Shown here piece after piece: positions 19,485 to 36,447 of a DNA stretch of 64,000 nucleotides (its first letter is position 1; each line of letters begins with the position of its first letter). Position numbers and translations under genes: made by a program. Under the pieces are notes generated by a model that saw only the letters and a list, made by a program, of their open reading frames with translations, was not told the origin of the DNA and searched no databases. The stretch is taken from positions 24,717-88,716 of the forward strand of contig JACPRK010000139.1 in NCBI GenBank assembly GCA_016190005.1. The letters run 5' to 3'. Source of the stretch: Candidatus Wallbacteria bacterium. GTDB lineage: Bacteria > Muiribacteriota > UBA6191 > JACPRK01.

Positions 19485-19940
19485 GGGATTCTCTCCTGTC
19501 AGCTCGTCCCCGGCGCGAGCTGTCTCCGGTCTACAGTGCGGCCGGGCTGTTCCGGATTCAAGAGACGACGGACGCCGCGACTCGTCACGCTCTGCATCCG
19601 GCTCGACCACGCCAGCGTAGACTGTTCTGGCCCTTCGCCACTCACGGCAGGGTCGGCGGCACGGGTCTGGGTCTCAGCATGGCGCGCAGCTTCTCCGAGG
19701 CAGACGCAGGGCGCCTCAGCTTCGAGGTCGCTCCCGGCGCCGGAATCCGGTTCGAGGTCGAGCTCCCGATCGATCGGGACGACGGTCCTGGGCACGGCGA
19801 GTGGATATCGCCGCGACTACGAGCCCGATCCGCAGGCCGAACGATAATGAAGCTCACTCGAGGACCGGCCTCGCCCGCCGGCCCTGCGCTCCGTGTTACC
19901 TTCGAACCGGATCGGCGTCGTATCGGACGACGAACCCGGC

Positions 19941-20573
19941 ATGACAGCCACCGACGATTCAGGATACGCCTCTCTGACAGACGAGGAGCTCGTGCGGCGC
20001 GACGGCGACGGCGACACCTCAGCTTTCGACATGCTCATCGACCGGCACGCGTCTCGTATTCTCGGCTTTCTCTTTCGTTCGACCGGGGATCGAGCGCTGT
20101 CGGAGGACCTGTTGCAGGAGACCTTCTTGAAGGCGTTCAGGAATAGACGCGGCTGGCGCGGAGAATCGCGATTTTCCACGTGGCTCGTGCAGATTGCGCG
20201 AAACCTGCTGATCGACAGGTTTCGATGGATGGGTCGCTGGAGAAGCGTCTCGATCGACGAGATGGATACTCAACCTGAACGGGCCATCCGTTCGGGTGAT
20301 CCGAGCCCTGAGGAAGCCGCACTGAGACGCGAGAGACACGACGAGCTGCGGGCAGCCATCCTGCGGCTTCCGGAGCGACAGCGAGAAGTCCTGTTGCTGT
20401 CTCGGTACTGCGACATGAGCTATGCGGAGATTGCCAGGCTGACCGGAGTCACGGAAGATGCCATCAAGCAGCTCGCCTACCGCGGCGTGCTGGCACTCAG
20501 ACGAGACCTGACGGGAAGCGGAGAGGCCAAAGATGGAGTCGAACCGACACCCCTGCGACGGAAAAGGTCCTGA
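19941..20573 (+). CDS. ECF-type RNA polymerase sigma factor
   Basis: Sigma70 region 2 (LLQETFLKAFRN...STWLVQIARNLLIDRFR) and region 4 (EVLLLSRYCDMSYAEIARLTGVTEDAIKQLAYRG). Confidence 0.8.
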   Translation: MTATDDSGYASLTDEELVRRDGDGDTSAFDMLIDRHASRILGFLFRSTGDRALSEDLLQETFLKAFRNRRGWRGESRFSTWLVQIARNLLIDRFRWMGRWRSVSIDEMDTQPERAIRSGDPSPEEAALRRERHDELRAAILRLPERQREVLLLSRYCDMSYAEIARLTGVTEDAIKQLAYRGVLALRRDLTGSGEAKDGVEPTPLRRKRS

Positions 20574-21189
20574 GGTCACGGCCTACGTGACGGGAAACCT
20601 CGACGCCGCCGCCCGAGCGGTGTTGGAGGCTCACATGACGTCCTGCTCGGCTTGCCGGGACTCGGAGCGATCGATCCGCGATGTATGGGCCTTGATGGCC
20701 ACGTTGCCGATGGAGACCGTGCCGCACGTCGTGAGGAGAGGGCTGAAGGCGACGATCGCCGCCGAACGAAGTGCCGTCGCGATGTGGCCGGTGGTCGTCG
20801 AAACCTTGCTTGCTCTGGGGCTGTTGACGATGCTGGGCGTAGTCTGCCCGATTCCGATGGTCTGCGAGTTCTTCCACACGGTTGTTCAACCGTTGCTGGG
20901 AGAGCGCTTCACGTTCTTGGCCCATACCATGGCCGCTGCGATGATGGGGCTGCTTCCTCTCGTGAGCGCGGAGCTACTCACTGGAAGGCTCGCAAGTCCG
21001 CCGACGACCCAGCGCCGTCAGCTCGTTGGAATGGGGTACTTCGCGCTGGTGGCCGTGGGCGTGCCGTTGTTGCGAATCCTCCCGCCCGATCCCGTCGCCG
21101 TCGTGAGCTGGTGCGCCGGCGCGGCGGCGGCGGCGTGGCTCTCGATGGAGATTGCGGAGAAGCTCCAGCCGGCCGCGGTCAGCTCGTGA
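20533..21189 (+). CDS. zinc-finger anti-sigma factor, membrane-anchored
   Basis: Overlaps the sigma-factor stop. HxxxCxxC motif EAHMTSCSACRD, then several hydrophobic transmembrane stretches. Confidence 0.6.
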   Translation: MESNRHPCDGKGPEVTAYVTGNLDAAARAVLEAHMTSCSACRDSERSIRDVWALMATLPMETVPHVVRRGLKATIAAERSAVAMWPVVVETLLALGLLTMLGVVCPIPMVCEFFHTVVQPLLGERFTFLAHTMAAAMMGLLPLVSAELLTGRLASPPTTQRRQLVGMGYFALVAVGVPLLRILPPDPVAVVSWCAGAAAAAWLSMEIAEKLQPAAVSS

Positions 21190-21443
21190 GGACTGCTACT
21201 CGGGCTGGCGGGAGCCCTTGCCACAGCCCTCGACGCCGAAGCTGACGCGAAGGCTCAGCCGGCCTGGGCGGGCCGAAGGCGCCCGGACTCGAGGGTGGCT
21301 CGATCTCCTCAGCGCGATTGGGCCGCGGGGGACGCGGTCTCTTCCGAGACATCGTCCCCCGACGGCCCCTTGGATCGGCGGGTTCGGCGACTACGCCGGC
21401 CTTCGCTACTTCAGGCTCGACCACGTCCTTTCCGCGAGCCCCG

Positions 21444-22301
21444 TCAGCGTGAGCTTCCGCTGCCGCCTTCGCGAGGAGCCTCGTTGAGGGACCAATCGTA
21501 GGAGAGCCACCGCACCTGGAATCCACCAGCCGCGATCGCCGCCTGAGCTTGCGGGGGTCCGAACTTGGCCAAGAAGCTCGCGGCGGCCGCGGACTTTCCG
21601 CCCAGTCCGCCGAAATTGCCGCCGGGTGCATACGCTCTCAGGAAATCATCCGCGAACCAGTCGAAAATCTGCGAGGCATGCAACACCTTCGCCGACAGGT
21701 CGATCCGATTGCGGGCCAAGCTCGTGGCGAAGCTGCGTGCCGCCTCGTCGAGCTGGGCGCCAAGTCGATCGCCAAGAAAGGGCTCCGCGCGCAGTTCGGG
21801 GCAGCTCACCGACGCGCAGTTGATGGCTGCGTGCAGTCGCGGGTCTGCGAACTCCTTCCGAAGCACCTCGTGCTCGATGTGATTGAGAGTGACCGGACGC
21901 CCTGCGGCGGTGAAAGTGATCTTGTCCCAGACACCCGGGATTTGACGGATGCTGCTCCGCGGATAGAGCGAGAACCAACTTCCCTGGATCGGGTAGTGGT
22001 CGATGATGACCTTCAGGGTGAAGGCGTTGTAGGCGTTGATCCAGTAGGCGAACCGGTCGTCTCGGCTCCAGGTCGAGAGGGCCTGCGGAGGGACGGCTCC
22101 GAGGGCGGTCACATAAGTATCGAGCCGCGTCCTTCCGTTCTTGAGCGCGGCGTAATCGACCAGTCCGTTGCGGACATGCGCCTTCAGAACCTGGGCGTAG
22201 AGGCCGTGAGTGCGATCGAAGTCACCGGCGAACAGGCCGGACGTGGCTAGGCACGCGCCGATCAGCGCAAGAGAAACGAAGTTGGGTCTTGTCATGTCCA
22301 T
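21444..22301 (-). CDS. DUF547 domain protein with signal peptide
   Basis: TAAGGAG RBS before ATG 22301. ...RFAYWINAYNAFTLKVIIDHYP...AINCASVSCPELR is the DUF547 signature. Confidence 0.7.
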   Translation of the reverse strand: MDMTRPNFVSLALIGACLATSGLFAGDFDRTHGLYAQVLKAHVRNGLVDYAALKNGRTRLDTYVTALGAVPPQALSTWSRDDRFAYWINAYNAFTLKVIIDHYPIQGSWFSLYPRSSIRQIPGVWDKITFTAAGRPVTLNHIEHEVLRKEFADPRLHAAINCASVSCPELRAEPFLGDRLGAQLDEAARSFATSLARNRIDLSAKVLHASQIFDWFADDFLRAYAPGGNFGGLGGKSAAAASFLAKFGPPQAQAAIAAGGFQVRWLSYDWSLNEAPREGGSGSSR

Positions 22302-22425
22302 GCTCCTTAGTCGATCCCCGGGGCAGCCGGCAACAAGCCGGCGCATCCAGGAGACGTCCGCGCCAGCGAAAGGTAACGGCCCAGGTTGGGTGCGTAGGAC
22401 GCCCGTCGGGCTGTGTCAGTGGGCA

Positions 22426-23394
22426 TCATCGAAGCCCCGCCAGCGACAAGATCAGCGCGGACACGCCCATCAGGAAGAGAACCCAGGGGAGGCTCCGAAG
22501 AGGTCGCCGCGCCGCGCGTGCCGGCAAGGAAAGGCGCAGGGTATCGGTACTTGCCGATGCGGGTAGCTGGGATGGTCTCCGGGCTGCCTGGGCAAGAGCG
22601 CGGCTGACGCGGTCGAGGTCCCCGAATCGATCTCTAGGCCGCCGGGCCAGCATCCTGAGGAGAGTATCGCTGGCGAGGGGTGAGAGTTCGGGGCGCAGCC
22701 GCGCCGGCGGAACCGGCGGCTCGGTCATGCGCGCCACGACTTCATCTGCCGGCGAGACTCGGGCAAAGGGGCGGCTGCCGACGACGAGCTCGTAAAGCAC
22801 GACGCCCAGCGAATACTGATCGGACGCAGACGAGGCTCCGGAGCCCTCGAAGAGCTCGGGAGCTACGTAACCGGCCGTTCCCACGACGATGCCGCGGCGC
22901 GTCACGAGCGCGGAGTCGGCCGATTTGGCAAACCCGAAGTCGAGTAGAACCGGACAGTCGGGCTCCGGCATCAGGATGTTCTCGGGCTTGAGGTCGCGAT
23001 GAACGATACCGTGCCGGTGAATCTCCGAGAGGGCCGACGCGAGCCGCATGCCGATGACGAGAGCTTGCCGGACAGGCAGAGCGCCCCGAACGACCAACTG
23101 TCGCAGCGTGGCACCGGCGATCCAGGGAGTCACCAGATAGGGAACCTGATCCACGACCCCGTGCTCCAGTACCGGCACGATTCCCGGATGGCGAAGCCGT
23201 GCGCCGACGCGTGCCTCGTGAAGAAACCGAGCTACCGCGTCAGGATCGTCCACGTGCTCTTCGGAGAGGACCTTCACGGCCACGTCCCGGCCCGAGGCCA
23301 CGCTCCGGGCCTGCCACACCGTCGCGAAGCTGCCGACCCCGAGAACACGGGCGGGCACGTACCGATCCAGCAGGAGCTGCGGGAATCCGGACAT
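22426..23394 (-). CDS. serine/threonine protein kinase with C-terminal transmembrane segment
   Basis: VAVKVL, HRDLKPENIL, DFGFAKS and GTAGYVAPE Hanks motifs. C-terminal hydrophobic helix WVLFLMGVSALILSLAGL. Confidence 0.8.
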   Translation of the reverse strand: MSGFPQLLLDRYVPARVLGVGSFATVWQARSVASGRDVAVKVLSEEHVDDPDAVARFLHEARVGARLRHPGIVPVLEHGVVDQVPYLVTPWIAGATLRQLVVRGALPVRQALVIGMRLASALSEIHRHGIVHRDLKPENILMPEPDCPVLLDFGFAKSADSALVTRRGIVVGTAGYVAPELFEGSGASSASDQYSLGVVLYELVVGSRPFARVSPADEVVARMTEPPVPPARLRPELSPLASDTLLRMLARRPRDRFGDLDRVSRALAQAARRPSQLPASASTDTLRLSLPARAARRPLRSLPWVLFLMGVSALILSLAGLR

Positions 23395-23400
23395 CGCTCT

Positions 23401-24237
23401 TCACGAAGTCTCGATCCGGGAGAAGTAGCCATCTTCGATCCAGTCCTGAGACCACCTCCGAAGTCTCGCGGAGAGCTCGTCGGGCTCCAGAGCCGCGTCG
23501 CGTTGCACCTTCTTCATCGCCTTGGCAAGGCACCGGCCCTGCACGAGCAGGCTCAGCAACCTGTATTCGTCCTGAGAGAGCTCCCTTCTCCAGACGCTCC
23601 AGTTCTTGCGATAGAGGACCGTGAAACTGGGGGCCGCGTCCGGCAAGGGAACGGACTCTCCACGCTTGACCGCCTGCAAGTAGGCGTTGACCGGGTACCC
23701 GAAGGCGCGCAACTGCAGCGTGGGAGCGGCGATGAAGACCGCGCCGCTCCAGTCGGCCGGACGCAGCGTCGCCAGCCCGCGCGCATCGAACGGACCCGGC
23801 TCCTCTGCGTCAAAGACGAGCGTCATCGCAAGCTCGAGCTCGGCCAGATCCGCGAGTACCGCACAGCTTTTCAGGTCACGGAGTGAACGGAGAAAACGAG
23901 GGAGGTGACGACCGAGCTGATTGAGGTTGGGATGAACAGACGGGTACGCCCGGATGTACTCGTCGACGAGCGACTTCCATGCCTCGGCACCGAGCGCGTC
24001 TTTCAACACGGGATAGTCCGTCGCCAGGGCATCTCGCATCCTGAGGGGGTACATCTGTGCGTAGACGGCCAGGCGATCGACAGGCTGCAGTCTGGCCGCG
24101 GGCAAGACGATCTCCTCAGCGCGGGCATCCAGGTGTCGTCGCGCATCGTCGGAATCGACTCCGCACCACGCGCAGTGAGGATGGGTCAGGACAGCCTGCA
24201 TCCATCCTTGGAGCTGACGAAGGGAGGGCTCAGCCAT
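23401..24237 (-). CDS. DUF2063-family protein, partner of the MNIO enzyme (BufC/MbnC-like)
   Basis: Immediately downstream of the DUF692 gene, overlapping by about 8 nt. N-terminal LRQLQGWMQAVL is typical of DUF2063. Confidence 0.7.
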   Translation of the reverse strand: MAEPSLRQLQGWMQAVLTHPHCAWCGVDSDDARRHLDARAEEIVLPAARLQPVDRLAVYAQMYPLRMRDALATDYPVLKDALGAEAWKSLVDEYIRAYPSVHPNLNQLGRHLPRFLRSLRDLKSCAVLADLAELELAMTLVFDAEEPGPFDARGLATLRPADWSGAVFIAAPTLQLRAFGYPVNAYLQAVKRGESVPLPDAAPSFTVLYRKNWSVWRRELSQDEYRLLSLLVQGRCLAKAMKKVQRDAALEPDELSARLRRWSQDWIEDGYFSRIETS

Positions 24238-25095
24238 GGACGGCCTCCGCTCGCAGTGGGGCCGAATCCGTGAGAGGACGGCCGTGACGCGCCTTCATCG
24301 CCTCGGCCAGGAGCACGTCGAAGGGCGGAATGTCCGCGTCCCACTCGTAGATGGTGGTGCGTCCTCCGCTCAGACGGGTCGCAAGCTCGTGGAGCGCCCA
24401 CACCCCGGGGAGCGCGTGGTCCGAGTGGGTGTCGATCAGGTGGGTGCCAACGTCGGTGTGGCCGGCCATATGGAAGTAGCCGACTCGCTCCCACGGGACG
24501 GCTTCGAGGTACTCGACCGGGTCGAAGCCGCAATTGACACTCGAGACGTAGACATTGTTGACGTCGATGAGGAGGCCGCAATCGGCCTCGTCGCACATCC
24601 GGGCCAGGAACTCCCACTCGGGCATCGAACTGTGCGTGAACGCCAGGTAGGTCGACGGGTTCTCCAGGAAGAGGGGCCGTTCCAGCAGGTCCTGGACGAT
24701 GCGAATCCTCGCCACGACGTGCGCAAGCGTCTGCTCGTCGTAGGGCAGCGGCAACAGGTCGTGGAGGTTTCGCCCCGCGACCCCGGTCCAGCAGACGTGA
24801 TCGGAGACCATCCTGGCGCGCGTTCGATCGGCCAGCGCCTTGACGCGTCTGACGTAGGCGCGATCCAGAAGGTCGGTGCTGCCGATGGAGAGGGAAACTC
24901 CGTGCATCACCACAGGGTAGCGGGCGGCCACCCGATCCAGCACGTGGAGCGGGCGCCCCCCCGTGTCGAGATAGTTGTCGGTGAGGACCTCGAACAGATC
25001 GACGGCCGGCCAGTGCGCGAGGACGTGGCCGTAATGGACCGTCCGGAGGCCGACGCCGACTCCCAGGTCGGTGGCAATGGACTGAATGGAGGACA
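24230..25095 (-). CDS. MNIO (multinuclear non-heme iron oxidative) enzyme, DUF692/UPF0276, BufB/MbnB-like
   Basis: MSSIQSIATDLGVGVGLRTVHYGHVL...TDNYLDTGG...HGVSLSIGSTD...ENPSTYL...HMAGH is the DUF692 TIM-barrel pattern. The ORF track extends it upstream to 25441, but that extension is an alternate-frame artefact of the precursor repeat. Confidence 0.8.
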
Positions 25096-25203
25096 TGAGT
25101 CGGTTTTCAGCGGAAGGAGGGCAGGCGACGGAGCCGGGGGGGATCGAGTGGGGGATGGCCCGCCGCCTGCCTCCAGGTACGGAGCGTTCAGGTGAGAAGG
25201 ACG

Positions 25204-25638
25204 TCAGCCCTTGTGGGGCACGGCACAACCGCCGAGACCCTTGCAGTCGTTCTTGCCCGCGCACTCGTTCTTCTCGGTCTTGCAGCCGCCGAGACCCTTG
25301 CAGTCGTTCTGTCCCTTGCACGCGTGCTTGGCGTCCTGGCTGGCACAGCCGCCCAGGCCCTTGCATTCGTTCTTGCCGGCGCACTCGTGCTTGTCCGTCT
25401 TGCAACCGCCGTGACCCTTGCACGAGTTCAATCCCTTGCACGCGTGGCGATCGGTCTTGGCCTCCTCGCTCGCAGCCTTGCTGGAGCCCTCCCCGGACCG
25501 ATCGGGTGTGCGCTCCGCTGCCGCCGGCGGCTCCTGTGAGCTGCCGCTACCCCCGTCCTGAGAGTAGACCAACCCGGCACCGGCGAGCACACCCGAGGCG
25601 ATCGCGCTGAGCATGAGTGTCTTGTTCCTGCGATTCAT
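25204..25638 (-). CDS. bufferin-like RiPP precursor: Sec signal peptide plus a 12-Cys tandem-repeat core
   Basis: AGGAGG RBS. Signal peptide MNRRNKTLMLSAIASGVLAGAGLVYSQ. The core is HACKGLNSCKGHGGCKTDKHECAGKNECKGLGGCASQDAK + HACKGQNDCKGLGGCKTEKNECAGKNDCKGLGGCAVPHKG, with 12 Cys in CKGxGGC / CAGKNxC repeats. It lies directly upstream of the MNIO and DUF2063 genes. Confidence 0.7.
   Translation of the reverse strand: MNRRNKTLMLSAIASGVLAGAGLVYSQDGGSGSSQEPPAAAERTPDRSGEGSSKAASEEAKTDRHACKGLNSCKGHGGCKTDKHECAGKNECKGLGGCASQDAKHACKGQNDCKGLGGCKTEKNECAGKNDCKGLGGCAVPHKG
25207..25446 (-). repeat. in-frame tandem duplication (2 x ~117 nt) encoding the 6-Cys core unit of the precursor
   Basis: Two near-identical 39-codon units. 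The same repeat produces the spurious overlapping ORFs 25192-25539(+), 25211-25414(+) and the 5-prime extension of ORF 24230-25441(-). Confidence 0.6.
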
Positions 25639-25899
25639 CCGAAGCAGCCTCCTTTGAGAAATCGATGGTTCGGTTCCGCCGAGATACGACGCAGCGGGGC
25701 CGGCAAGGTAACTGCGGTTGCCACAGATTTCGTCGAGGACGGTGGCCAGGTGATTCGCGCCATCCCGTTACCTGGCGCCCACTGGGCCGTCTTCCGGCCA
25801 TGAAGACGATGATGGTCACGAGCAGCCTCGCTCGCGTGCTCCGGGCGCCGAGATGGGCTGACACATCGGTCCTCGCGACGGAGGCGGTGCTGGCCAGCC

Positions 25900-26520
25900 G
25901 TGAAAGACGACAGGAAAGTGGGTTCGGCGGTCTCGGCGGATGACGACGAGGTACTGCGGCGATCGTCGACTCAGGAACCTGAGGCCTTCGGGGTCCTGGT
26001 CGGGAGGCACACTACCGGAGTTCTCCGGTTCCTCATGCGGCGTACCGCCGACCGAGCGATGGCCGAAGATCTCGTGCAGGAAACGTTTCTGAGGGCGTAC
26101 TCAGCTCGACGTGCCTGGCGCTCGGAAGGGAGCGTCCTCGGCTGGCTGCTCACGATCGCACGCCGTCTCCTGATTTCGCGCATGCGGAGGTTACGACGGA
26201 GACTGACCGTGCCCCTGGAAGGCGCATCGGAGCGCGAACTCCAGAGCCGGATCGGTGTTCCGGAAGAGACCGTCCTACGGCGAGAGCGTCACGACGCGGT
26301 CCGGCGTGAAGTGTTGCGTCTGAGGCCGAAACACAGGGACGTGATCGTGCTGTGGCTCCACGGAGAGTTGCACTACACCCGGATGGCCGGGCTGCTGGGA
26401 ACGACCGAGGCTCGGGTGAGGCAGCGTGTCTTCCACGCCAAGGAAGCTCTCGAGGGGCGTTTGCACGAGTTCCGACCGGGCGAGGGAGCCGGCGGCAGGC
26501 GACGAACTGCGAAGGGCTGA
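25900..26520 (+). CDS. ECF-type RNA polymerase sigma factor, divergent from the precursor gene
   Basis: DLVQETFLRAYSARRAW...GWLLTIARRLLISRMR (region 2) and DVIVLWLHGELHYTRMAGLLGTTEARVRQRVFHAKEAL (region 4). Confidence 0.8.
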   Translation: MKDDRKVGSAVSADDDEVLRRSSTQEPEAFGVLVGRHTTGVLRFLMRRTADRAMAEDLVQETFLRAYSARRAWRSEGSVLGWLLTIARRLLISRMRRLRRRLTVPLEGASERELQSRIGVPEETVLRRERHDAVRREVLRLRPKHRDVIVLWLHGELHYTRMAGLLGTTEARVRQRVFHAKEALEGRLHEFRPGEGAGGRRRTAKG

Positions 26521-26533
26521 GGAGGACCTGGCG

Positions 26534-26758
26534 ATGGCGATTCGGATCACGGTCTTCATTCGCGTTCAGGCAGGCGCGCCTGTCATGGCCTGCTGCCCCA
26601 TGATTCCCGGTATGTGTGCCACGGGGACCACAGTGACCGAAGTGACGCGAGAGCTCCGACAGCGCGTGCGAGAAGCGATACTGCAGGACCCCTCCTTGCT
26701 CGGCAGCACGTCAGTGACCTTTCTCGATCTCGACTTCGGCTTCGAACCGACCGACTGA
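26534..26758 (+). CDS. small HicB-like / UPF0150-fold protein, orphan paralog A
   Basis: GAGGAGG RBS. ITVFIRVQAGAPVMACCPMIPGMCATGTTVTEVTRELRQRVREAI aligns with the HicB core (…VIPELVTEADSLAEVTENVKDAL) of the bona fide HicB at 48574. No adjacent HicA. Confidence 0.45.
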   Translation: MAIRITVFIRVQAGAPVMACCPMIPGMCATGTTVTEVTRELRQRVREAILQDPSLLGSTSVTFLDLDFGFEPTD

Positions 26759-26833
26759 GAGAGGTCGCCTCCGAGGACTGTGCATCAATCGGCCTCCTCG
26801 ACGAGTACGGCACTGGCGCTCAGGAAGAGCGGG

Positions 26834-28456
26834 TCAATGCTCCAGCCGCAGGAGCCGAACGGGCTCCGCGGTGTAGTAGTTTTTCAGCAACTCGAAGCTG
26901 CCGATTGGCGATGCCCTTCCGAAGGTCTCGGGATACCGAACGGACAGGCGCGGAAGTTCGGCGCCATCCAGCAACAGCAAGTGCGTCGGAGGATAGCGTC
27001 GGAGCCGAGGACCGATGTACTCCAACGGGCGCCCGATCGGAAGGTTCACAGTCGGCAGGCGGTTCTCCAGCGCCAGGGTGTCGGCGATGCGGCCGCAGAT
27101 CACGGGGCGCGGAGTGTCGGCGCGAGCGCGCCGCCCGATACTGTGCGCCGTTTCGAGAAGGCTGTACCGCGGATGGGCGGCCCAGGCAACGTAGTCGAAA
27201 GCCGAAATCGCGATCGCGGCGCCCAGGGTCAACGCGGCCGTCACTCGGAGAAGAGGCCCCCGCCGCCAGAGCTGTTGCAGGGCGATCGCCGCCAGCCCAG
27301 CCATAGACGGGACAAGGATGAGGAAGTATCGCAACGGCTGATAGGAGAGCGAGGCCACGCCAGCAGTCGATACCAGCAGCCATAGCGCCAGAAACCGCAC
27401 CTCGACGGGCGGCATTTCGAAAATCGTGCCCGGCGGCCCGCGCTGAAAGCGACCGGATACTGCATGCCGACAGGCCATTGCCAGCACCCATAACGAGCCG
27501 CCCAGGCCGAGCGGGAAGAGGATTGGCCAGTGGTGCCAGGGCACGCCGTCCTGCAGGAAGACGGCGTACCCTCGGACCATTGCGCCGACTCCTCCGAGCC
27601 GCTGGCCCAGAAGCCGGGAAGTCAGCCAGGCAGCATCCTCCCCGAACGGTTCTACCCAAGAGGCGAAGAAGATCGTGGCACCGGCGGCCAGCGTGGCGGC
27701 CCAGGTGAAGGCGAGCGCCACGGGGGATAACGCAGCACCGCCTCGATAACGAAATCCGAGAACGACGGCGACGAAGACGGCATCGACGATGACCACCAAC
27801 GTCAGGGATACAGCGGAGAGTTTGAATCCTATAGCCAGCAGTCCAACGCAAGCAGAACCGGCTGCAAGACCGTGACTGGCGTGGCGCCGGGCAACCAGCA
27901 GAAGGGCAGCCGACGTCAACAGGAGCGTGATGTAAGGAATCTCAGTCAAGGCAAGGCGGGAGTACATGACGCTGGTGAAGTCCGTGGCCAGAAGAAGGGC
28001 CCCCACCATGGCGAAGGGGCGGCCAAGTGGCCGTCGTAGAAGTACGAAGAGCACGGCCGGTGCAAGCCCTCCCAGCAGGGCAGGGCCGGTCCGCGCCGCG
28101 ATGAGCGAGACCCCGGAGATCTCGAATGCGACTCGCTGCATCGCCGAGAACAGCGGTGTGATCGCGATCGGATTCAGGTCGCCCGGTTGGGTCCAAGTTC
28201 CCTCGAGCGCGTGGATGCGGGCGTTGCGGCTGTACCAACCCTCGTCGGTCAAGAAGACTCCCGATATCTGCAGATTGCCAAGGCGTCCGAGGCTGGCCAC
28301 GGGCGGATCGGCCTGCAACCAGGCCAGTCGGAGACTCAGGGCAAGGGCGAGCAGAATCGCGGCGACGGCCACGTCGACGGCGAAACCGGAGGCACGCAGC
28401 CGGCCGATCATCCGCAGCAACTGTCCGGCGCCGAGTCCAACCACGCCGCGACTCAT
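26834..28456 (-). CDS. glycosyltransferase family 39 (ArnT / PMT-like) integral membrane protein
   Basis: Multiple transmembrane helices. The N-terminal loop has a DEGWY-type motif (FLTDEGWYSRNA), followed by a large hydrophobic core typical of the GT-C fold. Confidence 0.65.
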   Translation of the reverse strand: MSRGVVGLGAGQLLRMIGRLRASGFAVDVAVAAILLALALSLRLAWLQADPPVASLGRLGNLQISGVFLTDEGWYSRNARIHALEGTWTQPGDLNPIAITPLFSAMQRVAFEISGVSLIAARTGPALLGGLAPAVLFVLLRRPLGRPFAMVGALLLATDFTSVMYSRLALTEIPYITLLLTSAALLLVARRHASHGLAAGSACVGLLAIGFKLSAVSLTLVVIVDAVFVAVVLGFRYRGGAALSPVALAFTWAATLAAGATIFFASWVEPFGEDAAWLTSRLLGQRLGGVGAMVRGYAVFLQDGVPWHHWPILFPLGLGGSLWVLAMACRHAVSGRFQRGPPGTIFEMPPVEVRFLALWLLVSTAGVASLSYQPLRYFLILVPSMAGLAAIALQQLWRRGPLLRVTAALTLGAAIAISAFDYVAWAAHPRYSLLETAHSIGRRARADTPRPVICGRIADTLALENRLPTVNLPIGRPLEYIGPRLRRYPPTHLLLLDGAELPRLSVRYPETFGRASPIGSFELLKNYYTAEPVRLLRLEH

Positions 28457-28948: not shown

Positions 28949-30835
28949 ATGCTGAACCTGCTCTTGAAATGCCTCCGAACTCGCGCATCATTACAACCGC
29001 CTCAGCGCCCGGCGTGGTTCGCACTGGCGCTGACCTTCTTGGCTGCAGCGCCGCATGTCGCGGCCGAACCCGTAACCGCATCGCTCGAATTTTCCCGGAA
29101 GGCTGTGCAGCCCGGGCAGACGGTGGAAGGCCTCGTCCGGCTTCGCATCCAGCCGGGCTATCATCTCTACGGCCCGGACGAGACGCAGGGCTTGCCGACC
29201 GCGGTGAAGCTCGTGGTGCCTGCCGGGGTCACAGTGAGCGCGCCGCGCTTCCCGGCGCCGCGAGAGGCCCATTACGAGGCGCTCGGCGGCAAGCTGAGGC
29301 TCTACGAGGATGATATCGCCGTCGGGTTCACGCTCGAGGTAGCGCCGGCGTTTTCCGGCAGCCGCGTAGGTGTGAGCGCGTTGCTCGATTACCAGCCCTG
29401 CACCGATCGCATTTGCGAGCGACCGCGGCAAGGCGTCGAAGCGAGTGCCGGGCTTCCGGTGGTGAGCGTGGCGGCAGCTGCGTCCGCCGACTCGCCCGAG
29501 TTGCCGGGCTCGCCGCTCAGGCAAAACCCTCTACGTGTCGCGCTCGACCGTGGCCTGTTGTGGGCGCTGCTCGCGGCGTTCGGCTGGGGCATCGCGGCCA
29601 GCTTCAGCCCCTGCGTCTATCCGATGATCCCGATCACGGTCTCCTACTTCGGCGGGCAATCGAAGTCCGGAAGCACCGCCCGCAGGGTAGCCCTCGCCTG
29701 TACTTACGTGCTCGGCATGGTCACCACCTACACGGCGGCCGGGGTGGCGGCGGCAAGGATGGGGCGAGACCTGGGAGCCGTCATGGCCAATCCGTGGATG
29801 ATCGGCTCTCTGTCCCTCGTGCTGGTCGCGCTGGCCGGATCGATGTTCGGACTGTATGTGCTTCAACTGCCGCGGGCGCTGACCGGCCGACTGCAGGCCG
29901 ACGACCGCGGTGGCTTTCTCGAAGCTTTCTTCCTGGGGCTGGTCCTGGGCTTCGTGGCGGCGCCCTGCGTGGGACCCTTCGCGGGCAGCATCCTCGTCTT
30001 CGTTGCCCAGTCCGCGGATCCGCTCGTTGGCTCCCTGACGCTGTTCAGCTTCGGCCTCGGGATGGGGATGCTCTTCATCGCCATCGCCGTGTCTTCGGGC
30101 ACCCTTGCGCTGATGCCGCGATCGGGCAAGTGGCTGCTCGCGCTGGAACGCTTCTTCGGGTACGTGCTGATCGGCATGGCGATTTACCTGGTTTCGAATG
30201 TCGTCGCGGCATCGGTGGCGACCTGGTTGTTCGGCGCCTACCTGGTCGCCGGCGGGACGTACCTGGGCGCCTTCATGCCCGTGCCAGCCGGGGCAAGCGG
30301 CTGGACACGGATGACCCAGGCCGCGGCGATCGTCATGGCTTCGACAGGCGTAGCCACCGTCATGTCGGGTACACCGTGGAACGGCGCCTTGCGCGAGGCA
30401 GCACGGCATGAGGCGGCCACGAACGGACGCGTGCTCGCCGAAGAGAGTGAAGGCATCCGCTGGTTCCGTTCACTCGAGGAGGCCAGGACCGAAGCCACCC
30501 GGACCGGCAAGCCGATCTTCGCCGATTTCTACGCAGACTGGTGTGTGCCTTGCCGCCTGATGGACCGCACGACGTTTCGAGATTCCCGGGTCGTGAAGGC
30601 CATGGAAGCGTTCATCGCCCTGAAAGCAGACTGTACGCAGCCGAAGATGCCGGCGGCCCGTTACAAGAATGACGTGTTGAAGTCCCCCGTCATGCCCTAC
30701 CTGGCCTTCTTCGGCCCGGCCGGCAACCCGCTTCCCGCCGATTCCATCGAGGGCTATACCGATGCTTCCGAGCTGCTCGCCGCGCTACATTCCGTCGCTG
30801 GGCGCTTTCAGCCACACCGGCAAGACCGCCAATGA
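28949..30835 (+). CDS. dsbD: thiol:disulfide interchange protein DsbD (alpha, CcdA-like transmembrane and thioredoxin domains)
   Basis: Periplasmic N-terminal domain with ...YQPCTDRICERP. Transmembrane core with SFSPCVYPMIPI and AAPCVGPF Cys motifs. C-terminal thioredoxin motif ADWCVPCRLMD. Confidence 0.85.
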   Translation: MLNLLLKCLRTRASLQPPQRPAWFALALTFLAAAPHVAAEPVTASLEFSRKAVQPGQTVEGLVRLRIQPGYHLYGPDETQGLPTAVKLVVPAGVTVSAPRFPAPREAHYEALGGKLRLYEDDIAVGFTLEVAPAFSGSRVGVSALLDYQPCTDRICERPRQGVEASAGLPVVSVAAAASADSPELPGSPLRQNPLRVALDRGLLWALLAAFGWGIAASFSPCVYPMIPITVSYFGGQSKSGSTARRVALACTYVLGMVTTYTAAGVAAARMGRDLGAVMANPWMIGSLSLVLVALAGSMFGLYVLQLPRALTGRLQADDRGGFLEAFFLGLVLGFVAAPCVGPFAGSILVFVAQSADPLVGSLTLFSFGLGMGMLFIAIAVSSGTLALMPRSGKWLLALERFFGYVLIGMAIYLVSNVVAASVATWLFGAYLVAGGTYLGAFMPVPAGASGWTRMTQAAAIVMASTGVATVMSGTPWNGALREAARHEAATNGRVLAEESEGIRWFRSLEEARTEATRTGKPIFADFYADWCVPCRLMDRTTFRDSRVVKAMEAFIALKADCTQPKMPAARYKNDVLKSPVMPYLAFFGPAGNPLPADSIEGYTDASELLAALHSVAGRFQPHRQDRQ

Positions 30836-31371
30836 GGTAACGGTTCGCGATGTTCAAAGAGTGTACCGTCGAGAAGCGTACCGTAGCATCCGTGACTGTC
30901 CGCGGTAGCAGGATTACCGACTGACGGCGGTGGAGGTGAACACGCGCCATGCAGTGGATTCTCGGGGACTTGTACAGGACAATGCCGGCGCAATGAGGTA
31001 GCCTACGGCGACGGGTTCTTGAGGTTGCCACTAGAGGCGCGCTTCGCCTTCAAGGGTGGCACGGCAATCAATCATTCTTACTTCGGCGACGACCGGTTCT
31101 CCGAGGACTTGGACTTCACAATCCTGGAGCAGAACCCCCTTCGAGACCGTCCGTGACGGACTCGAGCCCCTCTTCCGCACCGACCTTTCGTCCGTCCGAA
31201 AAGCAGGGAGCGTGATCTCTGTTGACAGTACCCTGCCGCAACGGCGCCGGCCGTGCATCCTCGGCTCCCCGCCGAGTTCTTCTCGCCGGCTCCCCGGAGA
31301 GCCCCGGCTGAAGCGCGACCGTGGATCGCCTTTGAGCGGGGCCTCCGGAGAAGACCTTCAGAAGAAGAATC

Positions 31372-31926
31372 TCACGAGCCGGCCTCGCGGTCGCCGCCGG
31401 AGCCGGCGGGATAGTCGTCCATGGAGCGCCTCCTGCGAGGCGGCTCCTCGGCCGGTGCCGTTGCTTCCTCCGGCGCGGGAAGCTGCTCGATCCACTCGCT
31501 GACCTGCCGGTGAGCTGCTTTCCCTTCCATCGCCCGGCGTCCCCTGCTGTCGTAGATGACGAAGTGAGGCAGCGCCCGAATGCCGTACTGCTCGGCGACG
31601 GGGGAGCTGAAATCGATGCTCCGTGAGCCGGGCCGGTCGACGTTGATCGTCCTCACGGCGATATCCGCGCGGGCCTCGACCAAGCGCTGCAGCCCGGGCG
31701 CGATAGCCCTGCAGGGCGGGCAGTTGCGGCTGTGGAAGTCGAAGATGGTCATCTTTCCCGGCACTCGATATCGCTCGATGTCGATCTCCAATCCGGCTTC
31801 TCCGATGGCTCCGATCGCCGCCCGGGAGCCGGGTCTCAGCATCTTCGCAGTGTCACCCGAGAACGCCAGGCCGCCCAAGACGGCGAAACCCGCGATCACG
31901 GTCCAGATAGGAACTCTCATTCTCAT
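31372..31926 (-). CDS. thioredoxin-like (TlpA/thiol-disulfide oxidoreductase) protein
   Basis: Signal/anchor N-terminus. Redox motif FHSRNCPPCRAIAP within a thioredoxin fold. Confidence 0.7.
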   Translation of the reverse strand: MRMRVPIWTVIAGFAVLGGLAFSGDTAKMLRPGSRAAIGAIGEAGLEIDIERYRVPGKMTIFDFHSRNCPPCRAIAPGLQRLVEARADIAVRTINVDRPGSRSIDFSSPVAEQYGIRALPHFVIYDSRGRRAMEGKAAHRQVSEWIEQLPAPEEATAPAEEPPRRRRSMDDYPAGSGGDREAGS

Positions 31927-32065
31927 ACGACCTCCTTGTCGTCGAATTCACCTGTTACGACGCCGACCAGCTTGCGACGTAACGTCCCAATCCGTTGGTT
32001 CGCGAGGGTGCCGGTTTCGTGGCCCAATCCCTGAGCCCGGCGGTCGGAGCGAATCGGCCGGGCTC

Positions 32066-33508
32066 TCATGCGGCCAGTGCGGCCGCGTTGCTCGCCGGCA
32101 GCTCCACCTGAAACTTAGTGCCGACACCTACTTCCGAGGAGAATTCGATGGTGCCACCATGGGCGACGACGTGACTCCTGGCGATCGCCAGACCCAGACC
32201 CGTGCCTGCCGGCTTTCCGTGCGTGACGAAAGCATCGAACAGTCGCGGTCTCACTTCGGATGGAACTCCCTTGCCCTCGTCAGCGACTTCGAGCAGGATC
32301 CGATGAGGTTGCGAGTCCAGGCGGACCAGGACTCGGCTGCCGGACGAGCTGGCCTCGATGGAGTTCTTGACGAGGTTGTAGACCACGCGCGCCATCTTGG
32401 TCCGGTCGGCCCGGAGGGATGCGCAGCCCTCAATCTCCGCGACGAGCTTCACACCCCGTTCATCGGCCAGCGGGCGCACGTCGCCGAGAATGTCCTCGAT
32501 GAACTCCACGGCGGCGAACTCGTCGAGATGGAGCGTCATGGAGCCCTGGCTGAAAGCCAGAATGTCGTCCGATAGCTCCGTGATCCGCTCTACCTGTTTG
32601 GCAAGGAGGTGGGCCATCGACTCTCGTCGGGGCCGTTCCTGCTGATCGGAGAGAATCCTGGTCAAGCCAAGGATGTTGGAGAGAGGACCGCGGACGTCGT
32701 GGACGATGGTGGCGACCATGCGACCCACCGAGGCCAGCCGCTCGTGAAGGTGGACGCTCGCGACGGCTTCTTGCATTGCATGGAAGTGTCGGGCTAACCG
32801 GCCGAGCTCCGCCGGCGCGAACAACGGCAGCGGAGGACCGGCGCCACCGTTCGCCGCGGCGTCCATCGCTTCGGCGAGCTGACTCAAGGGGCGAACCAGC
32901 ACGCTGGAGAGGATGCCGCCGAGGAGGATCGCGACGACGAGCCCGGCCAGAGTGACGGTTGCGAGCTCCAGGGCGTCGCGCCGCAGGATCGACCGGATTT
33001 CGCCGGCCTTGTAGTCGGCCTCGAGCAGGGCCACGGTACGCCCGCTGCTGTCCTTTACTGGAGCGTATGCGGACATCCACTCGCCGTACTGATCTTCGTA
33101 GATGCCTGTGCTGGCTGTCACCCCTTGCTCGAAGATGGCGAGCATCTCGGGCCTCAGCTCGTACGGCATGCCTATCTGGGCTTCGTGGCGGGTCCTCACG
33201 ATGAACCGCGTCTGGGAGCCCTCGCGCACCAGCGTGTAGATCTCGGTGTTCAGGCCGTTGCCTTGCTCAATCCGACGCAAATAGCCGGCGAGCTTCCTGA
33301 AGTTGGCGCAGCTGCGGTCGCGGCACTTGGCGAGCTCGGCATGGGCCTCACCGTCGAGGGCTTCCGCCGCCGTCACGGCTATCGAGAGTAGCCGGTCCTG
33401 GGCGAGTCGCGTGAGATGTTGCGACTCGCGACGCAGGTGCAGCAGCCCGGTCGTGACGGCGAAGAGAAGTAGCAGCCCTGCGCTCAGCCCAACAATCCTG
33501 ATATGCAT
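32066..33508 (-). CDS. sensor histidine kinase, paralog 1, intact
   Basis: Transmembrane helix, periplasmic sensor region, second transmembrane helix. H-box IVHDVRGPLSNI. HATPase_c N, G1 and G2 motifs (VYNLVKNSIEA, DEGKGVP, GTGLGLAIARS). Confidence 0.85.
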   Translation of the reverse strand: MHIRIVGLSAGLLLLFAVTTGLLHLRRESQHLTRLAQDRLLSIAVTAAEALDGEAHAELAKCRDRSCANFRKLAGYLRRIEQGNGLNTEIYTLVREGSQTRFIVRTRHEAQIGMPYELRPEMLAIFEQGVTASTGIYEDQYGEWMSAYAPVKDSSGRTVALLEADYKAGEIRSILRRDALELATVTLAGLVVAILLGGILSSVLVRPLSQLAEAMDAAANGGAGPPLPLFAPAELGRLARHFHAMQEAVASVHLHERLASVGRMVATIVHDVRGPLSNILGLTRILSDQQERPRRESMAHLLAKQVERITELSDDILAFSQGSMTLHLDEFAAVEFIEDILGDVRPLADERGVKLVAEIEGCASLRADRTKMARVVYNLVKNSIEASSSGSRVLVRLDSQPHRILLEVADEGKGVPSEVRPRLFDAFVTHGKPAGTGLGLAIARSHVVAHGGTIEFSSEVGVGTKFQVELPASNAAALAA

Positions 33509-33571
33509 TCTCCTGCTCCTTGGCTGGATGGGAAACCACAGACGATGCGTCGACTCCTAGACCTGCTTCCG

Positions 33572-33853
33572 TCATTGCTCCTCGACCGGCAGGGCACCAT
33601 CCAGAACGACGCCGTTCTCGACCTGATCCGAGAGGACGTCGAGCGTGAGGAACGTCACGCAAGTTCCGTCCAGCAGGGTCGGATCCGCGAGGAGGGCGTC
33701 TCTGACGCGCTGCCGCACCCCGCGGGTGACTTCCGTGACGGTCGCTCCAATGACACAGAGACCGGGAATCGTGGGGCAGCATGCGAGCACGGGCGATCCG
33801 GGCTTTACCCGAATGAAGAGAGGTACGCGTAGAGGTTTGCTCGAAAGGGTCAT
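33572..33853 (-). CDS. small HicB-like / UPF0150-fold protein, orphan paralog B
   Basis: MTLSSKPLRVPLFIRVKPGSPVLACCPTIPGLCVIGATVTEVTRGVRQRVRDAL is clearly homologous to 26534-26758. It lies just upstream of histidine kinase paralog 1. Confidence 0.45.
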   Translation of the reverse strand: MTLSSKPLRVPLFIRVKPGSPVLACCPTIPGLCVIGATVTEVTRGVRQRVRDALLADPTLLDGTCVTFLTLDVLSDQVENGVVLDGALPVEEQ

Positions 33854-33883
33854 CGCCACGGTCGTTTGGCCCTCGGGTCGCAC

Positions 33884-34486
33884 CTATTCGGACTCCTTCA
33901 AGAGGTCTTCGACTATCCCCTCGACAACCTCCGGCCGGTAGAAGTCCAGGTGGCGTAGCCGGCCTTGTCGATCCAGAAGGGCCACGTAAGGGGTCCCTCG
34001 CGCGCCATAGGACTCGAAAGTAGCCGTCAACTTTCGATCGATGGCCACGGGGAAATTGAACTGATTGCGCTTGACGTACGCCTGAATCCTGTCTGGCGTC
34101 TGGCTGGCCTGATGCTCGAAGGCCACTGCGAGACCGATGACCTGGAGACCTTCTCGCCCGTACCTCTGCTGCATCTTCACGATGTGGGGGTGCGCGGCGT
34201 GGCAGCCCGGACAGATGATCTGGAACATGTCGAGCAGCACGACTTTGCCCTTGAGTTGCTCGAGCGTCAACGGGGAGCCGGCGACCCACTGTTGAACCTG
34301 AAGGACGGGGGCCGGAACGGACTCGGGCACGGGCACGTAGATGCTGCCTCCAGTAGGCGGGGCCGCCTCCGGAGGTGACTGCCGTGTCGAGCCGGAGCCG
34401 GCATCCTGGGCCGGCGCCGTGATCGCTAGCAGCAGGCCCAGCAACGTCGCTTGGAGGCCACGAGAGAAAATCTGGTGTGCAATCAC
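33884..34486 (-). CDS. periplasmic TlpA-like redoxin
   Basis: Signal peptide. LLDMFQIICPGCHAAHP CxxC motif within a thioredoxin/AhpC-TSA-like fold. Confidence 0.7.
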   Translation of the reverse strand: MIAHQIFSRGLQATLLGLLLAITAPAQDAGSGSTRQSPPEAAPPTGGSIYVPVPESVPAPVLQVQQWVAGSPLTLEQLKGKVVLLDMFQIICPGCHAAHPHIVKMQQRYGREGLQVIGLAVAFEHQASQTPDRIQAYVKRNQFNFPVAIDRKLTATFESYGARGTPYVALLDRQGRLRHLDFYRPEVVEGIVEDLLKESE

Positions 34487-34731
34487 GGGAACCTCCTCAA
34501 CGGTGAGGAGCAGCTCGGGACAGCCACTCCGGCGCCGGCTCGTTCGGCCTCTGCCGCTCGTGGAGATTGACGTGTTCGCAGTGTCCGAGGTAACGACACT
34601 TCAGCCGACTACCGGTGCGTCCTCCGAGCGGAGTGCGAATCTCGACGCGCGATGCGTAGACGGGCGCGATGCCGTGGCCACAAGGACGGTGCGCGCCATA
34701 CCAGGAGCAACGGACAGCAGTTGGTTCAGTT

Positions 34732-35979: not shown

Positions 35980-36094
35980 CTTCAGAACCTCCTTACCGAT
36001 GCGCCCCGTACAGTACTGGCATCGGCAACATCCACATCCCCGGGTAGGGGATATGGTCGCCGGGATGAAAAAAAGAGGAGAGGGCGGCGGGGGC

Positions 36095-36403
36095 TCATGT
36101 TTGCTTCAACAGAGTTGCGAGGACCTGGCTGACCTTTTCGAGGCGTTCGTCGCGGCCGCCTTTCATGCAACTGTCCACGCACGCCTTGAGCTCATGCTCC
36201 AACAGATTGGCTGCGACCTGGTTGAGCGCAGCGCGCACCGCGGCCACCTGCAGGAGAATCTCGTCGGCGCAGCGGTGAGCCAGCACCATGGTCCGCAGTG
36301 AACGCACGTGGCCCTCGATGCGCGCGAGACGGTCGGCGAGCCGCTTCTGGGCGTCTTCGTCTAGATAGGGTTTCGGAACCGGTTTCAGGTGGGACTTGGC
36401 CAT
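36095..36403 (-). CDS. csoR: CsoR/RcnR-family metal-sensing transcriptional repressor
   Basis: GAGGAA RBS. MAKSHL...LARIEGHVRSLRTMVLAHRCADEILLQVAAVRAALNQV...HELKACV matches the DUF156 fold and its metal-ligand positions (C, H, C). Confidence 0.8.
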   Translation of the reverse strand: MAKSHLKPVPKPYLDEDAQKRLADRLARIEGHVRSLRTMVLAHRCADEILLQVAAVRAALNQVAANLLEHELKACVDSCMKGGRDERLEKVSQVLATLLKQT

Positions 36404-36428
36404 TGCGTTCCTCACATCTTGTAGTATA

Positions 36429-36447
36429 TATCCCCCCAGGGGGGATA
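36429..36447. promoter_or_regulatory. perfect inverted repeat TATCCCCCC-A-GGGGGGATA; predicted CsoR/RcnR-type operator
   Basis: 9-bp arms with a 1-bp spacer, about 26 nt upstream of the csoR-like start codon. The G/C-tract palindrome is characteristic of CsoR/RcnR operators. Confidence 0.55.

Follow-up and report, generated by a model that had tools for sequence, protein, structure and literature searches.

Bufferins are copper-binding ribosomal peptides that form a very large class recognized only recently; they were defined by Leprevost et al. 2024 (PMC11626156). The second-largest cluster of their precursors, 'BUF_6/12Cys', is founded by BufA2 of Caulobacter vibrioides, whose buf2 operon has the gene order precursor-MNIO-DUF2063 and is without DoxX (PMC11626156). 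Both buf operons of Caulobacter are copper-induced and belong to the regulon of the extracytoplasmic function (ECF) sigma factor SigF; in the Buf2 peptide the first and last Cys are unmodified, while the central Cys each show a shift of -4.03 Da (PMC11626156). A survey from 2025 recovered thousands of Buf2 precursors of 51-367 residues, with six conserved Cys in 90% of them and twelve in the remainder, the 12-Cys form being modelled as a duplicated domain; further conserved genes occur in Buf2 clusters at very low proportions only (PMC12452194). A 2026 paper with more than 24,000 MNIO-PME1 loci argues for a broad installation of 5-thiooxazoles and proposes the class name captophorins (PMC13097082). 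Here we describe a locus in a 64,000-nucleotide stretch of DNA from Candidatus Wallbacteria bacterium (contig JACPRK010000139.1 of assembly GCA_016190005.1, positions 24,717 to 88,716; hereafter the window) that is very probably a biosynthetic operon for a Buf2-type bufferin, i.e. of the BUF_6/12Cys family and the 'captophorin' class. A Ser/Thr kinase gene is joined to it, and it probably belongs to a local ECF stress regulon.

The ORF (open reading frame) list and direct translation show bufA2-bufB-bufC-kinase to be a gene string on the minus strand, with genes that overlap or are spaced by 6 to 107 nt: the gap between bufA2 and bufB is 107 nt, bufB and bufC overlap by 8 nt, and 6 nt separate the stop codon of bufC from the start of the kinase gene (Table 1). 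Across a divergent intergenic region of 261 bp from bufA2 lies a gene for an ECF sigma factor. BufC, the kinase and the sigma factor each agree at 100% identity with NCBI entries from this genome, in which the contig is 99,956 bp long. No DoxX was found among the annotated neighbors, and tblastn with the DoxX of L034, a 12-Cys Buf2 locus of the Vicinamibacteria, gave no match across the 64 kb. A first-pass annotation, made from the letters of this DNA, had already called the precursor, MNIO, DUF2063 and divergent sigma genes, and these are present in the ORF list where it had put them, except that its MNIO gene (24230-25095) ends one base short of the real end at 25096. Its placement of a kinase gene behind the DUF2063 gene likewise stands, with a gap of 6 nt in place of the ~7 nt it gave, as does its claim that the locus has no DoxX/BufD-like gene.

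BufB matches PF05114 (MbnB_TglH_ChrH/MNIO) with 334 bits and the NCBIfam model MNIO_BufB (NF050167) with 335.8 bits against a cut-off of 310, and it falls below the cut-offs of the other MNIO models, namely HvfB (244 against 360), MbnB (TIGR04159; 65.5 against 325), ChrH and ApyH. The solved structure closest to it is 3BWW, with which H65, D99-H100, E144, D175, N178, H208, H212, D222, H224 and E259 of BufB align as identical residues; the iron ligands are presumably among these conserved H, D, E and N positions, as in MbnB structures. An exact-sequence look-up of BufB returned no record. The partner protein BufC matches PF09836 (DUF2063) with 68 bits and stays below the cut-off of the HvfC model (68 against 142). 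Its AlphaFold2 model, built with 50 homologs, has a mean predicted local distance difference test score (pLDDT) of 93.3. A sequence search of the PDB with BufC gave no match; a fold search of the same database with the model recovered TglI, the partner of the MNIO TglH, as the top match (8hi7_A, E 1.4e-6), and in it the C-terminal ~70 residues matched TbiB1, a leader-binding protein with a RiPP recognition element (RRE; RiPP: a peptide made on the ribosome and modified after its translation), with a probability of 0.97. Thus, BufC is predicted from its model to carry a C-terminal RRE-like domain. A metagenome scan with BufC found just one short locus.

The precursor BufA2 contains exactly 12 Cys (positions 67, 73, 79, 86, 92, 98, 107, 113, 119, 126, 132 and 138), which are arranged in two tandem 39-aa units of six Cys with 74% identity in protein and 79% in DNA. 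Each unit follows the pattern HAC-KGxNxC-KGxGGC-Kxx(K)xEC-AGKNxC-KGLGGC, and the protein thereby has the motifs CKGHGGC (once), CKGLGGC (three times), CAGKNEC and CAGKNDC. In its overall layout a putative Sec-type signal peptide (residues ~1-26) is followed by a Ser/Thr/Glu-rich linker (~27-62) and then by the two 6-Cys Buf2 domains. The NCBIfam BufA2 model NF050166 matches it in two stretches with 62 bits (cut-off 60), and at E<=1e-3 a HMMER scan with BufA2 matched 1297 proteins, each representing a cluster formed at 50% identity. It is not a DUF2282 protein, and no EGKCG repeat occurs in its sequence. The N-terminus looks like a Sec signal peptide: the basic MNRRNK is followed by an 18-residue hydrophobic stretch (hydropathy peak at residues 10-24) and by VYS-QD, where a cut between Ser and Gln fits the -3/-1 rule, and homologs share this layout. 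Export by the twin-arginine translocation (Tat) pathway, as the 'RR' near the N-terminus might suggest, was rejected because the twin-arginine consensus does not accommodate the NKTL that follows and because RK replaces RR in the closest 12-Cys homologs.

Taken together, all the features that define a Buf2 cluster at the level of sequence are present. The similarity to buf2ABC of Caulobacter vibrioides (CCNA_02999-03001) extends to the order precursor-MNIO-DUF2063, the signal peptide, the CKG/CAGKN-type Cys motifs, the lack of DoxX and control by an ECF sigma factor, for which the promoter motif here is suggestive, its -35 element GTTACC being similar to the GTAACC of SigF. The locus differs from it in the duplicated 12-Cys core, which is the minority form, with its long Ser/Thr/Glu-rich linker, in the kinase gene joined to the operon, in the position of the ECF sigma gene, which is immediately divergent and without an anti-sigma factor of the NrsF type, and in its host, which is an uncultured lineage and not a proteobacterium. 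A further parallel is provided by L034 and L071, two 12-Cys Buf2 loci of the Vicinamibacteria (core 55% identical, MNIO 63%), which also have a divergent ECF sigma gene; unlike the present locus they have DoxX before the precursor, NrsF beside the sigma gene and two extra Cys in the linker, and they have no kinase. Since duplicated precursors with 12 Cys and DoxX-less clusters are both established within Buf2, the locus adds a member to a known family and not a new type.

Other families with an MNIO share parts of this plan. Bufferin 1 (DUF2282; bufABCD), oxazolin (HvfABC) and fontiphorin systems likewise have an MNIO and a DUF2063/PME1 partner acting on a Cys-rich precursor, and those of their products that are treated in PMC11626156 and PMC13097082 are copper-linked thiooxazole peptides. 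In contrast to the Buf1 and HvfABC systems, the present locus has no DUF2282 protein, no EGKCG repeats, no DoxX, and both HvfB and HvfC matches below cut-off; membership in the oxazolin/Hvf group was rejected on the scores given above (HvfB 244 against 360, HvfC 68 against 142) and the missing EGKCG repeat. With methanobactin (MbnABC) the locus would have in common that an oxidase of the MNIO family modifies Cys to form a copper ligand, but here DUF2063 takes the place of MbnC, the precursor is far larger and has a signal peptide, and the cluster contains no methanobactin transport genes. Membership there was rejected on the MbnB score, the DUF2063 partner and the 144-aa signal-peptide precursor, methanobactin precursors being short leader-core peptides with no signal peptide. 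Likewise, the curated models for chryseobactin (ChrH) and ApyH score far under their cut-offs, and these assignments were dropped.

These comparisons bear out the initial view of the locus as a bufferin-like MNIO RiPP operon: the BufA2 and BufB thresholds are passed and the DUF2063 partner has a predicted RRE-type domain. The matches that were to be checked with hidden Markov models were found for DUF692/MNIO (PF05114, 334 bits) and DUF2063 (PF09836, 68 bits), and the precursor matched the bufferin model (BufA2, 62 against 60) and not DUF2282. The proposed 12 Cys in two duplicated units with a CKGxGGC/CAGKNxC core agree with the Cys count and the 74% identity of the units, and the Sec signal peptide with the basic N-terminus, hydrophobic core and VYS-Q site recognized by hand and by hydropathy. 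Where the annotation likened the system to both methanobactin and bufferins, the latter comparison holds with BufA2 and BufB, and the former fails with an MbnB score of 65.5 against 325. The 12-Cys core and missing DoxX, which it took as unusual, are both documented in Buf2 (PMC12452194, PMC11626156).

By analogy with the described members of the family, BufA2 would be made in the cytoplasm, bound by BufC via its RRE-like domain and presented to the multi-iron oxidase BufB, which, as suggested by its homologs, would turn the central four of the six Cys in each domain into 5-thiooxazoles. The outer Cys pair of each domain would form a disulfide as proposed from Caulobacter Buf2, such that the predicted product has ~8 heterocycles and 2 disulfides (~-36 Da). 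Sec export and cleavage of the signal peptide would then yield a periplasmic peptide of ~118 residues, whose thiooxazoles, to judge from homologous systems, would chelate copper and buffer metal stress. The analysis itself establishes the identities of the genes, their family membership by curated thresholds, the geometry of the operon, the predicted fold of BufC, and the retention of the promoter motifs and the module in one sister genome; the chemistry, the export, the metal specificity, the identity of the acting sigma factor and the role of the kinase are inferred. A Cys-rich protein that is left unmodified, i.e. a secreted disulfide-rich or metallothionein-like protein, or a heterocycle of the oxazolone-thioamide type seen in methanobactin, appears highly improbable. 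The assignment of thiooxazole as opposed to oxazolone-thioamide is indeed debated in the field (PMC13097082); against this alternative, most of the related loci with a detected precursor have its gene immediately upstream of the one for the MNIO, BufB passes an equivalog threshold where the MbnB model fails, and the products of MNIO-PME1 pairs have recently been reassigned to 5-thiooxazoles (PMC13097082).

A scan of a genome collection with BufB recovered 80 loci with 53-65% identity, mostly from Acidobacteriota and Planctomycetota. In 74 of these loci a DUF2063 gene comes after that of the MNIO, and a precursor match is found in ~62; duplicated precursors with 12-14 Cys occur in ~25, and DoxX in 7. 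A different class of precursor is seen in the relatives from Planctomycetota and Verrucomicrobia (among loci L004-L080, e.g. L009, L017, L021 and L061): these are proteins of 135-180 aa with 9-10 Cys, which begin in a twin-arginine-like manner (S/N-RRDF-x-K/R-L), share the C-terminal helix WKKARKxFExxMKKAGKKFGxAP as a conserved element and in many cases have a lipobox Cys. The terms 'Tat' and 'twin-arginine' are absent from the MNIO landscape paper.

The intergenic region between bufA2 and the divergent sigma gene holds two copies of an ECF-type promoter-like motif, GTTACC-N15-CGTC, one directed toward each gene. The closest genomic counterparts of the locus are two contigs from one sample (SRR22387933), namely L081, a Logan contig with the sister bufC, and L091, with the sister bufA2. 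At the equivalent sites L091 has the exact motif on the sigma side and GTTACC-N15-CGTT on the bufA2 side; these motifs are the best-conserved intergenic blocks between the window and L091, where CCGTTACCTG and ACTGGGCCGTC are identical and the surroundings have diverged. In the window the motif is present at 15 exact sites, or at 21 sites when one mismatch is allowed, whereas shuffled sequence gave an expectation of 2.8 and never more than 7. The spacing is equally constrained: CGTC stands at exactly 15 nt from GTTACC in 15 of the 24 hexamers, whereas a distance of 12-14 nt is never seen and those of 16 nt and 17 nt are seen once apiece. All 15 exact sites fall within 11.7-41.4 kb (11770-41431), a segment of ~30 kb, and all are intergenic or at 5' ends, most having a recognizable gene close downstream on the same strand. 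Beyond bufA2 and both ECF sigma genes, those behind exact motifs encode a phosphate-type porin, DUF2461, DUF547, DUF3179, a glycosyltransferase, DsbD, an AhpC/TSA protein, a HAMP histidine kinase, an AhpD-like CMD protein, and a DedA/VTT protein with a disulfide-oxidoreductase fragment (pyridine-nucleotide-disulfide oxidoreductase) behind it; a copy with one mismatch precedes a thioredoxin-like gene. In 905 kb of other related loci, with the two sister contigs set aside, the motif occurs once.

The geometry is that of an ECF promoter and resembles the SigF site of Caulobacter, GTAACC-N16-CGAA (PMC3511200). Transcription of bufA2 probably starts at GTTACC-N15-CGTC. As 15 copies of the motif lie within 30 kb, mostly before thiol, redox and metal genes, we take the operon to be a probable member of a local ECF regulon for stress of the thiol, redox and metal kinds, in which both paralogous sigma genes would also be included. 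This island may be seen as an echo of the SigF regulon of Caulobacter. The motif might alternatively be a general promoter of the lineage and no signal of a regulon; this is less likely, with all exact sites confined to 11.7-41.4 kb and most of them at thiol, redox or metal genes.

With respect to the sigma factor acting at these sites, the product of the divergent gene matches Sigma70_r2 with 57.6 bits and also Sigma70_r4, and its region 2.2 reads MAEDLVQETF, as does that of its ortholog in L091. The latter is 62% identical and again divergent from a gene whose product, beginning MNRRNKTMLLSAIAAGVLAGAGLVYAQEGG...HACKGLNACKGLGGC, is the sister BufA2. From this arrangement and the bufC-kinase linkage in L081 it follows that, in terms of gene order, a module in which the sigma gene faces bufA2-bufB-bufC-kinase is common to two genomes, with both flanks differing; none of the 80 more distant loci has both the kinase and this sigma gene. 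No recognizable anti-sigma gene lies beside the divergent sigma gene. The small ORF74 that follows it (MAIRITVFIRVQAGAPVMACCPMIPGMC...) has no Pfam or NCBIfam family match; it is a real small gene, since L091 encodes a counterpart that is 74% identical along the full 74 aa, and its membership in the system is uncertain. As a candidate anti-sigma factor it was rejected: it has no transmembrane segment, zinc-finger motif or family match, and in L091 it does not adjoin the sigma gene, being 2.7 kb away and separated from it by genes for a redoxin and a HAMP histidine kinase and by two small ORFs.

A second ECF sigma gene in the window is followed by a gene for a membrane anti-sigma factor (Table 1). 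Compared with the divergent sigma factor, its product has the greater similarity to the sigma factors of the SigF/NrsF type that accompany the 12-Cys clusters L034 and L071. The GTG start of this second sigma gene overlaps an exact motif (19895-19919), so translation probably begins at the ATG at 19941 instead. A tblastn search with the NrsF of L034 found no NrsF (PF06532) in the window, the local anti-sigma factor being of the zf-HC2 type, and control of the SigF/NrsF kind was rejected on this ground, though L034 and L071 have NrsF. The second sigma/anti-sigma pair is a possible alternative or upstream regulator, and, as pure inference, the two might form a cascade in which the sensor pair acts before the orphan sigma. 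The first-pass annotation had named the divergent ECF sigma as candidate regulator. The divergent layout and the two motifs retained in L091 speak for that choice; it is not specific, given the paralogous pair and the occurrence of the motif elsewhere.

The kinase is of the Hanks type (145 bits against Pkinase) with all the catalytic motifs in place (GxGxxA, VAVK, HRDLKPEN, DFG and APE); it has a single C-terminal transmembrane helix at ~302-320 (hydropathy maximum at residue 302) and no extracytoplasmic domain. The motif GTTACC-N15-CGTC does not occur between 25688 and 22377, nor was a terminator-like site found there, and scans of 21000-27000 for intrinsic terminators and sigma-70 promoters found none. 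The next copy of the motif, at 22353-22377 before the DUF547 gene, likely marks the downstream end of the buf-kinase transcription unit, of which the kinase gene is probably the last member. L081, which has the closest BufC in a large protein collection (66% identical), encodes a kinase 9 nt past bufC that is 64% identical over the full length and has the same hydrophobic C-terminal tail. Past the kinase, L081 has a cytochrome P460 gene on the opposite strand and the window has DUF547; as these genes differ, the bufC-kinase linkage outlasts a break in gene order. Among 5.8 billion proteins the other relatives of the kinase reach at most 49% local identity, and at most 42% over most of the length. 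A kinase adjoins bufC in none of the 80 loci and lies within 6 kb in 3, and the related clusters L082 and L087 (BufC 45-47% identical) lack it. With the ortholog in place in L081 and none adjacent in the 80 loci, the kinase is a real conserved member of the operon within a very narrow clade. The word 'kinase' is absent from the bufferin/MNIO surveys and the thiooxazole paper (PMC11626156, PMC12452194, PMC13097082).

Most likely the kinase is a lineage-specific addition with a regulatory role, and a functional link to the bufferin pathway is plausible. A stronger proposal is tentative and on balance doubtful, namely that it is a working part and makes the system a kinase-coupled variant, either by controlling expression through phosphorylation of the orphan sigma or of the anti-sigma factor with the zinc finger, or by phosphorylating BufC or the precursor's Ser/Thr-rich linker ahead of export. 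It draws on the 6-nt distance from bufC with no promoter motif or terminator in between, on the position held by the L081 ortholog at a 9-nt gap despite differing genes beyond, that ortholog being the sole close one among the 5.8 billion proteins, on phospho-signaling genes near related clusters (a dual kinase in L086, a PTP-like phosphatase in L083), and on two precedents, the activation of ECF sigma factors by kinases of the Ser/Thr type and the action of PknB on zinc-finger anti-sigma factors (PMC8999054). Against it, the linkage is seen in two related genomes only, with the counts in the 80 loci and in L082 and L087 as given; the kinase has no sensor domain, and the divergent sigma keeps an acidic MAED where the phospho-activated EcfP has STTA. 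Moreover, a second kinase is encoded in the window at 56828-57709, and such genes are therefore no rarity here. Somewhat more doubtful still is the view that the bufferin pathway of this clade has gained a phospho-signaling arm of its own, with a tail-anchored kinase, co-transcribed with bufA2BC, that switches on the sigma circuit or phosphorylates the precursor linker.

The nearest described parallel to such an arm is ECF43 (EcfP/PknT and EcfK/PknS), in which an ECF sigma without an adjacent anti-sigma factor is similarly encoded close to a membrane Ser/Thr kinase. The present system differs in that region 2.2 keeps Glu-Asp (MAED) in place of the Ser/Thr motif that needs phosphorylation, in that the kinase gene lies in the neighboring target operon and not beside the sigma gene, and in that the kinase has no extracytoplasmic sensor. 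Activation of the divergent sigma by phosphorylation in the manner of ECF43 was rejected because its region 2.2 is acidic, whereas by the criterion of PMC8999054 the acidic DAED motif gives way to Ser/Thr in such sigma factors.

Around related Buf2 clusters we also observed a protein of ~275-300 aa, without a Pfam match, encoded right after bufC in L086 (1478-2305), L087 (1932-2834) and L088 (929-1831), and 52% identical between these sister-clade loci. In L086 a gene for a 658-aa protein comes after it, on the same strand and two genes downstream of the cluster; this protein contains two kinase domains. The PTP-like phosphatase of L083 is encoded two genes upstream of its Buf2 cluster.

Beyond the divergent sigma gene, an envelope thiol and metal gene cluster adjoins the buf locus (28949-36508), and thioredoxins, peroxiredoxins and a MerA-like flavoprotein are also encoded in the neighborhood. 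The CopZ/MerT/HMA and CsoR-like genes of this cluster are 9-11 kb from the buf operon. This setting bears on a further alternative, namely that the product is a peptide of the bufferin type with a role other than copper buffering, directed to another thiophilic metal (Hg, Au, Cd or Zn) or serving as a periplasmic redox buffer in a regulon for oxidative or thiol stress, which we regard as unlikely. In its favor, the motif also precedes genes for DsbD, the thioredoxin-like, AhpC/TSA and AhpD-like (CMD) proteins, and DedA with the disulfide oxidoreductase; MerT/HMA and MerA-like proteins are among the neighbors; the paralogous sigma is paired with an anti-sigma factor of the redox type (HxxxCxxC); and the bufferin/MNIO literature (PMC11626156, PMC12452194, PMC13097082) contains no measurement of metal specificity for a 12-Cys Buf2. 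However, Buf1, Buf2, oxazolin and fontiphorin are all described as copper-linked or copper-binding (PMC11626156, PMC12452194, PMC13097082), and a CsoR/RicR-like repressor of the copper type and a CopZ-type domain are encoded nearby.

The following points weigh against the interpretation of the locus as a Buf2 operon for a copper-buffering peptide. The operon itself has no feature that points specifically to copper, the family score of BufA2 is just 2 bits over its cut-off, and the signal peptide was judged by hand and by hydropathy only. The same literature offers no chemically characterized 12-Cys Buf2 product, and even for the 6-Cys form the identity of the heterocycle rests on the mass shift and on the similarity of its ultraviolet spectrum to that of Buf1 (PMC12452194). 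Sigma and NrsF genes were found by the survey in Buf1 and not in Buf2 clusters (PMC12452194). The promoter motif, which stands at no fewer than 13 further positions of the window, is shared with many unrelated genes and therefore fails to tie the operon to the adjacent sigma factor. Finally, the source is an uncultured metagenome-assembled genome that is labelled Candidatus Wallbacteria.

Further observations concern the surroundings. In L091 a HAMP kinase and a redoxin, like those of the window when compared by size and domain content, directly follow the sigma gene. Two adjacent ORFs on the minus strand, 38307-38678 and 37875-38198, match the N-terminal and C-terminal parts of AhpC/TSA, respectively, and may be one peroxiredoxin gene broken by a frameshift or an assembly error. 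At 11861-14362 on the plus strand lies a gene for an 833-aa fusion of radical-SAM, SPASM and class I methyltransferase domains, with a one-mismatch copy of the motif at 11806-11830.

Table 1. Features of the buf locus and its surroundings, in window coordinates
Feature	Positions	Strand	Size or remark	Basis
bufA2 precursor	25204..25638	-	144 aa	ORF list, translation, NCBIfam BufA2
bufB MNIO (DUF692) maturase	24230..25096	-	288 aa, ATG at 25096	PF05114, NCBIfam BufB
bufC DUF2063 partner (PME1 type)	23401..24237	-	278 aa	PF09836
Hanks-type Ser/Thr kinase	22426..23394	-	322 aa	Pkinase
ECF sigma gene (divergent)	25900..26520	+	206 aa, GTG start	Sigma70_r2/r4
Ribosome-binding site AAGGAGG	25648..25654	-	9 nt upstream of bufA2 ATG	read from upstream sequence
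ECF-type promoter-like motif toward bufA2	25688..25712	-	49 nt before ATG	
ECF-type promoter-like motif toward sigma gene	25767..25791	+	108 nt before GTG	
Promoter motif before next gene (DUF547, 21444-22346)	22353..22377	-	exact GTTACC-N15-CGTC	
Exact motif sites, minus strand (start positions)	11770, 18334, 22353, 25688, 28553, 38799, 41285	-		
Exact motif sites, plus strand (start positions)	16179, 19895, 25767, 28914, 36566, 38849, 40489, 41407	+		
ORF74	26534..26758	+	74 aa, 14 nt past sigma gene	74% identity in L091 (3916-4137)
Second ECF sigma	19893..20573	+	41% identical to divergent sigma	
Membrane anti-sigma factor, zf-HC2, HxxxCxxC zinc finger	20533..21189	+	after second sigma	
DsbD	28949-30835			Pfam
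Thioredoxin-like protein	31372-31926			
HAMP histidine kinase	32066-33508			
Redoxin	33884-34486			
CopZ-Nterm/MerT/HMA fusion protein	34732-35979			
CsoR/RicR-like repressor	36095-36508			

Work on bufferins has so far been mostly on Pseudomonadota, and the locus described here takes the 12-Cys, DoxX-less Buf2 cluster into an uncultured lineage labelled Candidatus Wallbacteria. It is a compact candidate for asking whether the duplicated core bears eight thiooxazoles. Knowledge of the family itself is unchanged, and the modest added value lies in regulation: where the survey found no sigma genes in Buf2 clusters, the operon here has a conserved ECF-type promoter, closes with a kinase gene that the sister genome retains, and lies within a 30-kb group of genes with the same motif.

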